Shown here: in pieces, positions 30,287-34,542 of the stretch
Layout: each line of letters begins with the position of its first letter
How positions within the stretch are numbered: the first letter of the stretch is position 1
Translations under genes and position numbers: made by a program
The notes under the pieces: generated by a model
Databases searched by the model: none
What the model saw: the letters and a program-made list of their open reading frames with translations, nothing else
Told to the model about the DNA's origin: nothing
Assembly: GCA_022766825.1 (NCBI GenBank)
Contig: JALEQE010000102.1
Span: 1-46,660, forward strand
DNA: 46,660 nucleotides
Source: Oscillospiraceae bacterium
Lineage (GTDB): Bacteria > Bacillota > Clostridia > Oscillospirales > Ruminococcaceae
Direction: 5' to 3'

Positions 30287-30457
30287 ATGGCATATCAGAT
30301 TTCCGACGATTGCATCGCTTGCGGTTCCTGCGCAGCAGGCTGCCCCGTTGGCGCTATTTCAGAAGGTGACGGCAAATACGTTATCGATGCCGATGCTTGC
30401 ATCGACTGCGGTTCTTGCCAGGGTGCTTGCCCTGTTGGCGCTCCTCAACCGCAATAA
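30287..30457 (+). CDS. fdx: Clostridial-type 2[4Fe-4S] ferredoxin (56 aa)
   Basis: MAYQISDDCIACGSCAAGCPVGAISEGDGKYVIDADACIDCGSCQGACPVGAPQPQ*; RBS AAGGAGG. Confidence 0.96.
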   Translation: MAYQISDDCIACGSCAAGCPVGAISEGDGKYVIDADACIDCGSCQGACPVGAPQPQ

Positions 30458-30477
30458 TTCGTACATACGAATAAACA

Positions 30478-30513
30478 CAAACACCCGCGATGTTAAAATT
30501 CGCGGGTGTTTTT
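30478..30513. terminator. Intrinsic terminator (bidirectional)
   Basis: aaacacccgcga...tcgcgggtgttttt. Confidence 0.8.
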
Positions 30514-31118
30514 TATGCGATAATTCTTCCCACAATAGCAAGGAAAACAATAAACGCGAAAAAAGCCGCCCAAGGAATAAGCGCCGCTAACAAATAGGCT
30601 TTTCCTGCGCGCTTTTTACCATCCGTCAAACTGACAATTCCGAGAATGATACCGACAATGTTTATAAATACGGAAAGTACAACTAGACCTACATTCGCGG
30701 GTTCGTCTTTGCCGGGACCGTTGGTTTGAACAATTTGAATGTTACTTGCCTGGCAACCGCAGAAAATACATACAACGGCATTTTCGGGAATGACTTTTCC
30801 GCAATGACTGCAATATTTGTATCCATTACCAATCGGATAAAAGTTCGGAACGTTATTGGCAGGAGGAATTTGCGTGTTGTTTTGATATTCGTTCTGTAAA
30901 TTGTTGTTCGAAATGTTATTATTCAACTGTTCCTTGTTCGGATAGCCGCAGGAGGCACAGCGCGAGTTTATTTCCCAACATTCTTTATGATGAGGCGCGC
31001 CGCATTCGGGACAATAAATAAATTGTTCGCCGCTTATCATATTTTTGTGACAAAACGAGCAATATTTGCTCTCATACGTTGGGTTGAACACTCCGTTATT
31101 TTCTGTGTTTATTTCCAT
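30513..31118 (-). CDS. Membrane protein with RING-like and zinc-ribbon domains
   Basis: CxxC...CPECGAPHHKECW...CxxC; CSHCG...CIFCG; two C-terminal TM helices. Confidence 0.75.
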   Translation of the reverse strand: MEINTENNGVFNPTYESKYCSFCHKNMISGEQFIYCPECGAPHHKECWEINSRCASCGYPNKEQLNNNISNNNLQNEYQNNTQIPPANNVPNFYPIGNGYKYCSHCGKVIPENAVVCIFCGCQASNIQIVQTNGPGKDEPANVGLVVLSVFINIVGIILGIVSLTDGKKRAGKAYLLAALIPWAAFFAFIVFLAIVGRIIA

Positions 31119-31140
31119 AAATCTGCCCCCTTTATTGTAT

Positions 31141-31170
31141 ATTATACAACATTAAAATAGATTTTGTCAA
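31141..31170 (-). promoter_or_regulatory. Promoter of the zinc-ribbon gene
   Basis: TTGACA-18-TATAAT. Confidence 0.7.
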
Positions 31171-31174
31171 TATA

Positions 31175-31192
31175 AGGGAACACCGCATAATA
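31175..31192. mobile_element. Solo terminal repeat of the MITE-like family
   Basis: agggaacaccgcataata. Confidence 0.55.
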
Positions 31193-31226
31193 AAACGCTC
31201 GGAAAATCAATAGATTAACCGAGCGT
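31191..31226 (-). terminator. Putative terminator downstream of the ncRNA
   Basis: ACGCUCGG...CCGAGCGU followed by UUU on the minus strand. Confidence 0.5.
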
Positions 31227-31296
31227 CTGAATATCCAAAATTATCGATAATTTCGCATAAGCGAATAAAAACACAATTTACATAAAGCAACGCTTT

Positions 31297-31673
31297 TATC
31301 GGCAGTTTTACCCGATCGGCACGGTGAACCTGAACGTGTTCCCGCTCGGCTTACCATTTCGTATCACGCTGGATACCGATTCCCGCGTTATTTTCCGCAC
31401 GCAGAACAGCGCAAACCCGCTTATTCGCATTTCCCGTCTGTGCGGTGACGGGGCTTGTCGTTAAAACATCACGTTGATACGTTCTCGGTCTGCCCAACGC
31501 CTGACCTTGTCCGCGGGACTTCGCGGCAAGGGTGTGACAGCTGAAAATCGTCGGGATCGGCGATCCCTGATTTTCGGCGTTTATAGGGCAACCGCCGAAA
31601 GCGGCGTACCCCGACTCTGAATTTTTCTTCGATCCGTTTTACTGACTCGCGTTCAGGGATGATTTCCCTTGCC
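31297..31673 (-). ncRNA. Unassigned large structured non-coding RNA (~370 nt)
   Basis: GC-rich island with no ORF >=60 aa; own TTGACA-17-TAAAAT promoter; 5'/3' end pairing; several hairpins and tandem pseudoknot candidates. Confidence 0.7.
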
Positions 31674-31676
31674 TAT

Positions 31677-31705
31677 ATTTTAACTCTTTTCCCAGGGTTT
31701 GTCAA
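31677..31705 (-). promoter_or_regulatory. Promoter of the ncRNA
   Basis: TTGACA (31705..31700)-17-TAAAAT (31682..31677). Confidence 0.8.
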
Positions 31706-31784
31706 GTGAATTTTGAATAAAAGTTACACCTTTTTTGTCTTGCGTTTGTTGTACATAACAAGAGAATTTTCGAGGTAAAATATG

Positions 31785-31813
31785 TTGACAAACACGGATA
31801 ATTGATGTATAAT
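31785..31813 (+). promoter_or_regulatory. secA promoter
   Basis: TTGACA-17-TATAAT. Confidence 0.8.
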
Positions 31814-31854
31814 AAATATGTATATTTGTAATTTGCGACAGAAAGGTTTAAATT

Positions 31855-34542
31855 ATGGGAATTATCAAATCGATTTTCGGAACATATTCATCAAGAGAAT
31901 TGAAACGCATTGAGCCTATAAAGCAAAAAGTTCTTGATCTTGAGACGAAATATCACGCAATGAGCGATAAGGAGCTTAAAGGTCAGACTCCTATACTTAA
32001 AGAAAGACTTGCCAACGGTGAAACGCTTGACGATATTCTGCCCGACGCTTTTGCCGTATGCCGTGAGGCGTCAAGCCGTGTTATCGGTATCAAGCACTAT
32101 CCTGTACAGATAATCGGCGGTATCGTTTTACATCAGGGACGTATCGCCGAAATGAAAACAGGTGAAGGTAAAACATTTGTTGCAACGCTTCCCGCGTATC
32201 TGAACGCGCTGACCGGCAAGGGTGTTCATATAGTAACCTGCAACGACTACCTCGCGAAGCGCGACAGCGAGTGGATGAGCAAGGTTCACCGCTTTTTGGG
32301 GCTTACCGTCGGACTTATCACGCACGATTTGGATAACGACCAGCGCCGCGCAGCGTATAACTGCGATATTACTTATGCGACAAACAACGAACTCGGTTTC
32401 GACTATTTGCGCGATAATATGTGCATTTATAAGAGCGACCTTGTTCAGCGCGAGCCGAATTTTGCTATTGTCGATGAGGTTGACTCCATTTTGATTGACG
32501 AGGCAAGAACACCGCTCATCATTTCTGGCCCCGGAGATAAATCCACCGATTTGTACGAGAGAGCGGACAGATTTGCGAAATCGCTGAAAATGGACAAGGT
32601 TGTTGAGATAGATACAAAAGAAGAGTACGACAAGAACTTTACCGGCGATTATCTGGTTGACGAAAAGGAAAAGACCTGCAACCTGCTTCCTGCCGGCGTT
32701 GAGAAGGCGGAGAAATATTTCCATGTTGAAAACCTTATGGATCCCGAAAATATGACACTGCTTCACCATATCAATCAGGCAATACGCGCGAACGGCGTTA
32801 TGAAACGCGATGTGGATTATGTTATCAAGGACGGCGAAATCGTTATTGTTGACGAGTTCACGGGACGACTGATGTTCGGACGCCGCTATAATCAGGGTCT
32901 GCACCAGGCTATTGAGGCGAAAGAGGGCGTAAAGGTAAACCGCGAAAGCAAAACTCTCGCCACAATAACGTTCCAGAATTTCTTCAGACTGTATAAAAAG
33001 CTCTCCGGTATGACGGGTACGGCAATGACCGAAGAGGATGAGTTCAGGCAGATTTATTCGCTTGATGTTATCGAAATTCCCACAAATAAACCGGTTATCA
33101 GAACGGATTATCACGATAAAATCTATAAAAACGTCAAGGGCAAGCTGAACGCGGTTTGCGATCAGGTTGAGGAATGTCATAAAAAGGGACAGCCGGTGCT
33201 TGTCGGCACGGTTACTATCGAAAAGTCCGAGCAGCTTTCAAAGCTGCTGAAAGCGCGCGGAATCAAGCACGAGGTTCTTAATGCAAAGAATCACGAGCGC
33301 GAGGCGGAAATTGTTGCCCAGGCAGGTAAGAAAGGCGCGGTTACGATCGCCACGAATATGGCGGGACGCGGTACCGATATTAAACTCGGCGGTAACTCCG
33401 AGTATCTCGCGATTGCCGAGATGAAAAAGCTGGAATATTCCGAAGAGCTTATCCAGGAGGCAACGGGCTTTGCGGAAACAGATAACGAGGAAATAATCGC
33501 GGCTCGTGAGAAATATCAGGAGCTTATGAAGAAATATGACGAGCAGATCGCTCCCGAGGCGGACGAAGTCAGAGCGGCGGGCGGCTTGTTCATAATCGGC
33601 ACGGAACGTCACGAATCCCGCCGTATCGATAATCAGCTCCGCGGACGTTCGGGACGTCAGGGCGACCCCGGTGAAAGCTGCTTCTACATTTCGCTTGAAG
33701 ATGACCTTATGAGATTGTTCGGCGGCGACAGAGTGCGTTTGATAATGGAGAAAATGAACTTTGAGGAGGATATTCCGCTTGAAGTCGGTTTCCTCTCGAA
33801 GGCTATTGAAAGCGCTCAGAGAAAGATTGAGGGTAACAACTTCGCAATAAGAAAGCACGTCCTCGATTTCGACGATGTTATGTCGCAGATGCGTGAAACG
33901 ATTTATACGCAGAGAAGAAAGGTTCTTGACGGCGAGGATATTCACGACAACATTGTCGCTATGATGAAAGAGGATATCGAGGAGACCGTTAAAACGTACT
34001 GCTCCGATCCGATTGCCGAAAACTGGAACCTCGACGGTTTGCGTTCACAGTATATGAACGTTTACCTTATGGATACCGATTTGCGTTATTCCACTGAGGA
34101 TCTGAACGAAATAACTCAAAAGGACGTTATCGACTTTATTCAGAAGCGTGGTGATCTGATTTACGGTTTGCGCGAGAAAGAGTTCGGTCCGGAGTCGATG
34201 CGCGAGCTTGAACGCGTCTGCCTGCTGAAGACGGTTGACCGTTACTGGATGGATCACATTGACGCAATGGACGAACTGAAAAACGGTATCGGACTTCGCG
34301 GATATGCCCAAAGAAACCCTGTCGAGGAATATCGTTTTGAGGGCTTTAAAATGTTTGACGAGATGATTGCGGCTATTCGTTCGGATACGGTTAAGCTGGT
34401 TCTTACAATGCCGGTACGGGTTTCTGCACCCATTCAGCGCGAACAGGTAATGCACCCCGACGCTCCGAACGCGGGCGGAAAGCAAACTCCTTACAAGAGC
34501 GCAAAACGCGCCGAAAAGAAGGCTAAAAAAGCGAAGAAATAA
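31855..34542 (+). CDS. secA: Preprotein translocase ATPase SecA (canonical)
   Basis: [68 protein letters not shown]. Confidence 0.98.

Follow-up and report, generated by a model that had tools for sequence, protein, structure and literature searches.

As far as the available sections of PMC5419742 describe them, RoxS of Bacillus subtilis shields the yflS mRNA from RNase J1, and FasX of Streptococcus pyogenes stabilizes ska. Flagellin mRNA is the target of FlaX of Vibrio cholerae, which, according to the accessible part of PMC11879080, is cut from the flaA 3′ UTR, associates with ProQ, and blocks ribosome binding. The Hag-FliW-CsrA partner switch of B. subtilis appears in the accessible text of PMC7652899 as a protein-only loop. 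The locus compared with these systems here lies on the minus strand of a 46,660-nt window (the whole stretch of DNA that was analyzed, from an Oscillospiraceae genome, G000) and is a genuine, stand-alone, large, and structured non-coding RNA gene at about 31670-31290, ~380 nt in length. No earlier description of this RNA was found in the literature searched. What is new here is that one of its junction strands is complementary to nucleotides +1 to +11 (or +14) of the predicted sigma-28 flagellin leader in 48 of the 48 genomes in which both parts are present. The parts of the gene, and the RNA contigs that cover it, are as follows.

31677..31705, minus strand: sigma-A-type promoter TTGACA-17-TAAAAT (promoter scan, 11 of 12 matches; predicted +1 near 31670)
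31585..31668, minus strand: variable 5′ region with two hairpins, 31668-31656 and 31612-31585 (from the fold; differs between lineages)
31492..31581, minus strand: middle domain, a three-way junction with a pseudoknot (alignment of 63 sequences)
31534..31547, minus strand: seed UUUUCAGCUGUCAC, comprising the junction strand and the end of P2; complement of the predicted +1..+14 of flagellin mRNA
31395..31452, minus strand: sub-clade module, a hairpin at 31452-31433 whose loop CCGCAC can pair with GUGCGG at 31400-31395 (7 of 79 RNAs)
31290..31388, minus strand: 3′ rod, an irregular hairpin of ~100 nt with internal loops (model R1; in every homologue, homologues having been found by the rod)
31190..31254, minus strand: tail, an AU-rich hairpin at 31254-31237 and a terminator-like hairpin at 31228-31190 (from the fold)
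31300..31656, strand not shown: span of metatranscriptome contigs (6 RNA runs, 5 studies)

The promoter TTGACA-17-TAAAAT, which a preliminary description of this region had placed on the minus strand, was recovered by the scan at 31705-31677, and we infer that the minus strand is transcribed from it. That description had also noted a GC-rich island in AT-rich surroundings, and GC content is indeed 53-59% over 31300-31650 versus 25-36% in the flanks. Relative to shuffled sequences, the minus strand folds with a z-score of -3.04 and the plus strand with one of -1.21; the G.U pairs conserved in the rod and the promoter-terminator orientation likewise favor the minus strand. The internal hairpins that it had named, together with the AACGCC/GGCGUU helix, are present in the sequence and in the minimum free energy fold. 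Its terminator-like hairpin exists and is followed by a short U run at 31228-31190, but does not appear on the list returned by the terminator scan. No ORF of at least 80 aa from a start codon lies inside the element in an ORF listing made at that cut-off; there is one 95-codon stop-to-stop frame, with no ATG within its first 60 codons, and AGGAGG occurs in only 2 of the 79 homologous RNAs. The locus has its own promoter and terminator and reads as a trans-encoded, non-coding RNA gene, as expected of the kind of sRNA that pairs with 5′ ends.

Among 23 sequencing runs listed as containing this stretch, 13 were recorded as RNA, and six RNA runs, gut metatranscriptomes from five studies, were mapped. 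Each yielded one contig with at most two differences from the window (31300-31651, 31311-31649, 31318-31651, 31325-31656, 31391-31640, and 31312-31618), the runs having been chosen for containing the stretch and the contigs revealing neither strand nor ends. The six RNA runs gave no long contig over the flanks, and a short identical piece at 30400-30480 was seen in two of them; two runs of unrecorded kind covered 30400-33000 (2.6 kb) nearly completely. The pattern fits an abundant discrete RNA, such as had been proposed, with the RNA contigs confined to 31300-31656 and silent as to strand. Because contigs show neither strand nor ends, the bare flanks are only a weak hint of where the transcript begins and stops, and the 3′ ends of the RNA contigs, at 31300-31391, fall short of the tail hairpins. 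A one-base insertion at 31390, just before the rod, was seen in four of the six RNA runs, as well as in a run of unrecorded kind, and represents strain variation.

Searches of Rfam with the window, with the element at E<=10, and with 19 and 13 related loci gave no match over the element, in keeping with the earlier view of it as an unassigned large RNA that is not tmRNA, RNase P RNA, SRP RNA, or the raiA motif. For tmRNA, neither ARAGORN nor RF00023 made a call in the window, and a canonical tmRNA lies on contig C28 of the same genome (164 bits). RNase P RNA (RF00010) does not match the element and has a canonical copy on C146 (270 bits), and the SRP RNA (RF01854) is likewise on C146 (77.9 bits). 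The RNase P RNA and SRP RNA genes there (1298-1899; L026, L029) stand head to head, ~60 bases apart. For 6S RNA, the closing helix on which a faint resemblance had been based occurs in 1 of 79 homologues, and the best RF00013 match in the genome, on C27, scores 45.2 bits against a cut-off of 46.4. With tmRNA, RNase P RNA, SRP RNA, and a 6S candidate all on other contigs, the element is an additional RNA and not a replacement. No RF03072 (raiA motif) match was found on the element or its homologues; a family-wide search was blank, as was its control. We rejected an HDV-like ribozyme: such ribozymes have a 7-bp P1 and a nested double pseudoknot in which the partner of P2 is conserved, whereas here P1 is 5 bp and no consistent partner for the junction strand occurs inside the RNA. 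Also rejected was a terminator/antiterminator switch involving the rod, as the complementarity is not kept across lineages. In a comparison of the seed with 23S rRNA, the 23S anchor was found in 0 of 101 assemblies, and the five assemblies checked all lacked 23S. Taken together, conservation, covariation, the RNA contigs, and the presence elsewhere in the genome of tmRNA, RNase P RNA, SRP RNA, and a 6S candidate support the element as an unassigned, stand-alone, large structured non-coding RNA.

Promoter, pseudoknotted junction, and terminator stand in series, as they would in a cis-acting leader, riboswitch, or attenuator for the downstream gene. This reading, which the preliminary description had already thought unlikely, is largely refuted, and we give it hardly any credence. 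The gene downstream in the window (31118), which encodes a RING/zinc-ribbon protein, was found as claimed to have its own promoter (12 of 12 matches at 31170-31141), and the RNA contigs do not continue into the downstream region. Elsewhere the neighbors, identified by reading translations, vary (secA, thrS, ylxM-ffh, and others), and in 21 of 51 loci the longest frame downstream runs on the other strand; on both grounds the RNA is not a leader. The divergent gene in the window is secA, as had been stated, but the association is incidental, since neighbors differ between genomes. None of the neighbors examined is flagellar, and the promoter is of sigma-A type in 77 of 81 distinct homologues, which places the RNA outside the sigma-28-dependent sRNAs. 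At L019:685-790, a drum RNA (RF02958, 50 bits) lies close to the homologue in G028.

Homologues, which the preliminary description had suggested seeking for covariation, were found throughout one genus, which we take to be the Eubacterium siraeum group. BLAST detected pieces of the RNA in 19 of 36 genomes of the genus and in 0 of 24 from other families, and a sequence pattern run over GTDB genomes identified 53 loci, most of them in records named Oscillospiraceae, Ruminococcaceae, or Clostridia and one in Eubacterium sp. CAG:786. When we searched with R1, a covariance model of the 3′ part (the rod), 94 of 101 genus genomes were matched; in 93 the match was full-length at E<=6e-8 and a single strong copy was found. 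Among near-complete genomes, 48 of 52 had the RNA. R1 matched 0 of 149 genomes from other genera of the family and 0 of 150 from the order, where 25 of several hundred candidates per genome were scored; three viral pattern matches did not fit the model. A metagenome scan gave six loci. One match, in a record titled Escherichia coli (L066), lies at a contig end with a full promoter and middle domain and probably represents a mis-binned contig.

The same promoter lies within 560 nt in 77 of the 81 distinct homologues, further upstream in three, and was not found in one, and a hairpin with a U tract follows the rod in 69 of 79. The distance from promoter to rod end is 215-481 nt, extending to 713 nt with hairpin expansions. 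In the longest homologues (L082, L139, and L141; 651-713 nt), many short hairpins are inserted between the middle domain and the rod, often of the form CCGCA-GGG/GGA-UGCGG in L082 and L139. Most homologues carry a terminator hairpin motif, GUAUCACG...CGYGAUAC (for example L006:1620-1670), whose 5′ arm is found in 71 of 79 and which shares UAUCAC with the seed; it is absent from the copy in the window, whose sub-clade has the AU-rich hairpin 31254-31237 instead. Positions 16-18 of the promoter spacer (31690-31688 in the window) are AAA in 76 of 77 homologues, versus 62 of 245 promoter-like sites in G000. When the spacer was compared with the CodY box consensus, 15 of 76 promoters came within four mismatches versus 16 of 245 controls, and no CodY-like motif was found in G000.

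The alignments define two conserved, covarying domains, a middle junction-pseudoknot and the 3′ rod, predicted from sequence comparison. In the middle domain, P1 (31580-31576/31501-31497), P2, and P3 (31531-31505) form the junction, and the loop GUCC (31519-31516) pairs with GGGC (31495-31492) as a pseudoknot. Across 63 sequences, 92.2% of the cells of this structure, which was drawn by hand from the alignment, are paired, with double changes in 21 of 24 pairs, whereas slid controls reach 36-48%. The domain was found in 79 of 91 genomes with the RNA locus and is missing in the other 12. Its junction strand, AGCURUCACA, is nearly invariant and unpaired, with no consistent partner inside the RNA. 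In the rod, 2404 of 2579 cells are paired in 81 distinct rows, and 13 of 32 pairs have two or more double changes; an earlier alignment, fitted to the model and including five weak or antisense rows since excluded, gave 92.8% paired versus 31-36% in slid controls.

The structural model of the preliminary description, in which an end-to-end helix and tandem pseudoknots suggested a likeness to 6S RNA, is not conserved in these alignments. The 5′ strand of its closing helix, CCUGAACG/CGUUCAGG, was found in only 1 of 79 homologues, that of the window itself, and the 3′ strand pairs locally within the rod; with the helix falls the faint resemblance to 6S RNA. Of the three tandem H-type pseudoknots, only the hairpin at 31452-31433 recurs, in the 7 of 79 RNAs noted above, and for its loop CCGCAC the sequence GUGCGG at 31400-31395 is a better partner than the UGCG at 31426 that had been proposed. 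The conserved pseudoknot, GUCC/GGGC, differs from all of those.

In G000, the complement of the seed lies on the minus strand of contig C42 from 34592, where GUGACAGCUGAAAA stands against UUUUCAGCUGUCAC. The site is 8 nt 3′ of the promoter TAAAG-N15-CCGATA, which we take to match the sigma-28 consensus, and 115 nt before a flagellin start; the predicted +1 of the flagellin mRNA is the G 8 nt after CCGATA. For a 17-nt window around the seed, this is the sole genomic complement of at least 13 nt. Since the RNA as a whole has 65 genomic complements of at least 13 nt, including another 14-mer overlapping the seed on C57, a 14-nt match proves nothing by its length, and the weight rests on conservation. 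We tabulated 93 genomes, of which 79 have the seed, 59 a promoter-bearing flagellin leader, and 48 both, the remainder having no assembled leader or not having been retrieved. Sixty of 63 leaders start with the motif at the same spacing, exactly 8 nt past CCGATA in 60 of 60 and 97-165 nt upstream of the Shine-Dalgarno sequence; the other three belong to second flagellins. These second flagellins, in G032, G351, and G352 (L228, L234, L236), have a sigma-28-like promoter and a different leader without the seed site. Other flagellin copies (L216, L221, L235, and others) have neither promoter nor leader and adjoin other sequence, often as opposed pairs on one contig; they are possibly silent or invertible cassettes.

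Positions +1..+11 are paired with the seed in 49 of 49 leaders from the 48 genomes, under search patterns that at some seed positions admitted pyrimidine or purine variants only. At position 5, 35 leaders give A-U and 14 give G-C, with no mixed case. The other changes are G.U wobbles (three at +6, three at +7, one at +12, and five at +14) and, in G021 at +14, a G-C swap. At position -1, 38 of the 49 leaders are mismatched. In the 15 genomes in which the pairing is 11-12 bp, a GUACAC loop complementary to GUGUAC in the leader is always present (15 of 15), and in those with 14 bp it never is (0 of 33); the loop probably marks one clade. In G363 and G377, the 5′ region just before P1 adds a 21-nt complement to leader positions +12..+32, and in G365 one of 16 nt. 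Second sites in the 5′ region exceed shuffled sequences in only 8 of 47 genomes. Among 395 genomes of other genera, 24 contained the combined pattern of promoter and leader versus 28 for a reversed control, and none of the 24 loci is near flagellin, so that the motif there is at chance level.

These counts come from related genomes that are not independent, and each co-change represents one evolutionary event; the position-5 change, for instance, maps to one branch of a 41-taxon SecA tree. This leaves room for a reading in which no RNA-RNA pairing takes place, the RNA gene and the flagellin promoter have a DNA site or an ancestry in common, and the RNA does something else. Where the RNA has no seed and a leader was recovered (n = 9), +1..+11 is changed in three and unchanged in six, the six counting in favor of this reading; in genomes with the seed it is changed in 0 of 48. 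In the 8 of 12 seed-less RNAs inspected by eye, the whole domain is missing or degraded. Leader position 5 also covaries with leader position 18 in a hairpin of its own, so that conservation of the leader start has in part a local cause. Against a shared DNA site, where the two copies differ the change still allows a wobble pair when they are set RNA against RNA, the covarying fold leaves the seed unpaired, and extra complements of 21 nt and 6 nt are specific to lineages. We regard the absence of pairing as quite improbable. The seed is accessible in the predicted fold, conserved, and complementary to the first nucleotides of its target, whose +1 is predicted from the promoter; and several single events agree, namely the co-change at position 5, variants in separate lineages that are wobbles only, the loop that compensates for shorter pairing, the extension by 21 nt, and the joint loss described below. 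On these grounds, we consider it very likely that the seed base-pairs, RNA to RNA, with the start of the flagellin leader.

The leaders have a further feature. In 58 of 60 (L211, G000:C42 minus strand 34592-34540, and L213-L308), a self-complementary hexamer occurs, UGUACA in 35, GUCGAC in 18, and GUGCAC in five, and it is predicted to be unpaired in 53 of the 58. A 6-nt palindrome is present in 56 of 60 leaders versus 42% in shuffled sequences and is kept while its letters change, as in kissing-loop dimerization signals. This self-complementary loop suggests that the flagellin message may also dimerize.

In one clade, the RNA was lost together with flagellar genes. CsrA and FliW are each encoded in 96 of 101 genus genomes and are missing from G003, G008, G011, and G015 (96-99% complete) and from G333 (75%). 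Flagellin, too, is missing from the first four, and no other near-complete genome is without the RNA. A SecA tree of 41 genomes groups the four in a single clade (99/97) that branches from within relatives carrying the RNA. Two genomes of the wider clade, G010 and G021, have the RNA gene divergent from thrS, and at that place it is absent in G008 and G011; the contigs of G003 and G015 end 254 nt upstream. We conclude that the RNA, flagellin, fliW, and csrA, at unlinked loci, were lost jointly once, and other genes may have gone too.

Loss together with csrA is also what a CsrB/RsmZ-like sponge for CsrA would show, and two homologues contain runs of short hairpins with AGG, GGA, or GGG loops. 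GGA falls in 78 of 579 predicted hairpin loops versus 48.5 of 581 in shuffled sequences. Over the 79 RNAs, however, GGA occurs 535 times against 506 expected, ANGGA 107 against 117, and AGGA 77 against 110, so that only loop-located GGA is raised; FliW accompanies CsrA everywhere, and CsrA is found in 60 of 150 family genomes outside the genus with no RNA match there. A sponge is accordingly a very remote prospect.

The two domains invite a different reading, that of a two-armed adaptor or scaffold, in which the pseudoknot-presented seed would clamp the 5′ end of the flagellin mRNA while the rod binds some protein machinery (the export apparatus, FliW/CsrA, the ribosome, or a nuclease), positioning, storing, or licensing one mRNA much as SRP RNA serves nascent proteins. 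The domains are separable, each conserved, and joined by linkers of widely differing length (215-713 nt overall); RNAs that have lost the seed keep the rod, whereas loss of the flagellum took the entire gene; and no conserved RNA target for the rod was found in the flagellin leader. The rod would serve either to bind protein or to stabilize the RNA. Stabilization may be all that it does, and the protein partner of an adaptor is hypothetical. We consider such an adaptor doubtful.

We favor a reading in which the RNA pairs with the predicted start of flagellin mRNA, shields it from exonucleolytic decay, and raises flagellin output, and we give this full account an even chance of being right. The pseudoknotted middle domain would present the unpaired seed for the predicted first 11-14 nt of the message. 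The first four nucleotides of the leader are predicted to be unpaired ahead of a small hairpin, and the junction strand would dock on them and then open that hairpin (+5..+18) and the end of P2; the predicted gain on co-folding is about -6.5 kcal/mol, the pseudoknot not counted. The resulting duplex at the 5′ end would block RNase J, a gene for which is present in G000, and the rod would bind protein or stabilize the RNA.

All of the pairing evidence applies equally to the opposite, translational outcome, in which pairing refolds or marks the leader, flagellin falls, and the RNA acts as a brake on the Hag-FliW-CsrA loop, by RNase III or RNase Y cleavage, by easier access for CsrA, or by sequestration. 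Pairing must open the first hairpin of the leader, 51 of 60 leaders have a GGAA..UUCC hairpin before the AGGAGG Shine-Dalgarno sequence, and csrA and fliW are present. Repression also has a precedent in FlaX, which in the available part of PMC11879080 represses flagellin mRNA. The site, however, is 97-165 nt away from the Shine-Dalgarno sequence, and the complementary stretch ends at the predicted +1, an arrangement shared with RoxS and FasX, which are protective in the accessible text of PMC5419742. For these reasons, and with RNase J encoded in the genome, we prefer protection with higher flagellin output; granted that pairing occurs, analogy makes protection somewhat the likelier direction, and a brake is possible and on the whole unlikely.

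Most large orphan bacterial non-coding RNAs have no assigned target. For this one a specific target, open to testing, is predicted, and it is backed by changes that RNA and mRNA share and by the loss of the RNA along with the flagellum. Gut commensals of this genus are common, and flagellin is a major immune stimulus, which gives its regulation wider interest; the range is narrow, one genus in the searches made. If the proposal holds, an RNA layer is added to flagellin control in Firmicutes, beside the FliW-CsrA protein loop, and 5′-end protection extends to a large, multi-domain RNA. Among published RNA motifs, no match was found in six supplementary files of Fremin and Bhatt 2021 (PMC8040213), and a fragment could be among the remaining candidates of that collection.

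The likeness to RoxS and FasX lies in the geometry of pairing at the 5′ end of the target, and protection is proposed here by analogy with them. Those RNAs, as the available sections of PMC5419742 present them, use C-rich motifs against G runs, whereas this RNA displays a mixed seed of 11-14 nt in a pseudoknotted three-way junction; it is also 215-713 nt long, has a second conserved domain in the rod, is predicted to target flagellin, and has no Rfam similarity. FlaX resembles it as an abundant sRNA that, in the accessible part of PMC11879080, pairs with flagellin mRNA at more than one site, the pairing here being predicted; unlike FlaX, this RNA is encoded apart from flagellar genes behind a sigma-A promoter of its own, and its match is to the predicted +1. 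A post-transcriptional RNA layer over the flagellar cascade, here proposed, is shared with the sigma-28 sRNAs of E. coli (UhpU, MotR, FliX, and FlgO; PMC10578931) and with FlmE and FlmR of Campylobacter jejuni (PMC11187230), which in the parts of those articles available belong to Gram-negative bacteria and either depend on flagellar sigma factors or come from UTRs; this RNA is large and structured, has a housekeeping-type promoter, and occurs in a clostridial genus. The raiA motif, or ModT RNA, is similarly an abundant, stand-alone, pseudoknotted Firmicute RNA with variable peripheral stems, but, according to the accessible text of PMC12968392, its closing P1 joins both ends and it has two pseudoknots, whereas the domains here are arranged in series. 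As for the Hag-FliW-CsrA switch, the genus has fliW-csrA in its flagellar locus and GGA-bearing flagellin leaders, and an RNA acting antisense to the start of the leader would come on top of the protein loop. The RNA constitutes a new family, which resembles RoxS and FasX in its predicted geometry and FlaX in its predicted target class but belongs neither with these nor with the sigma-28 sRNAs.
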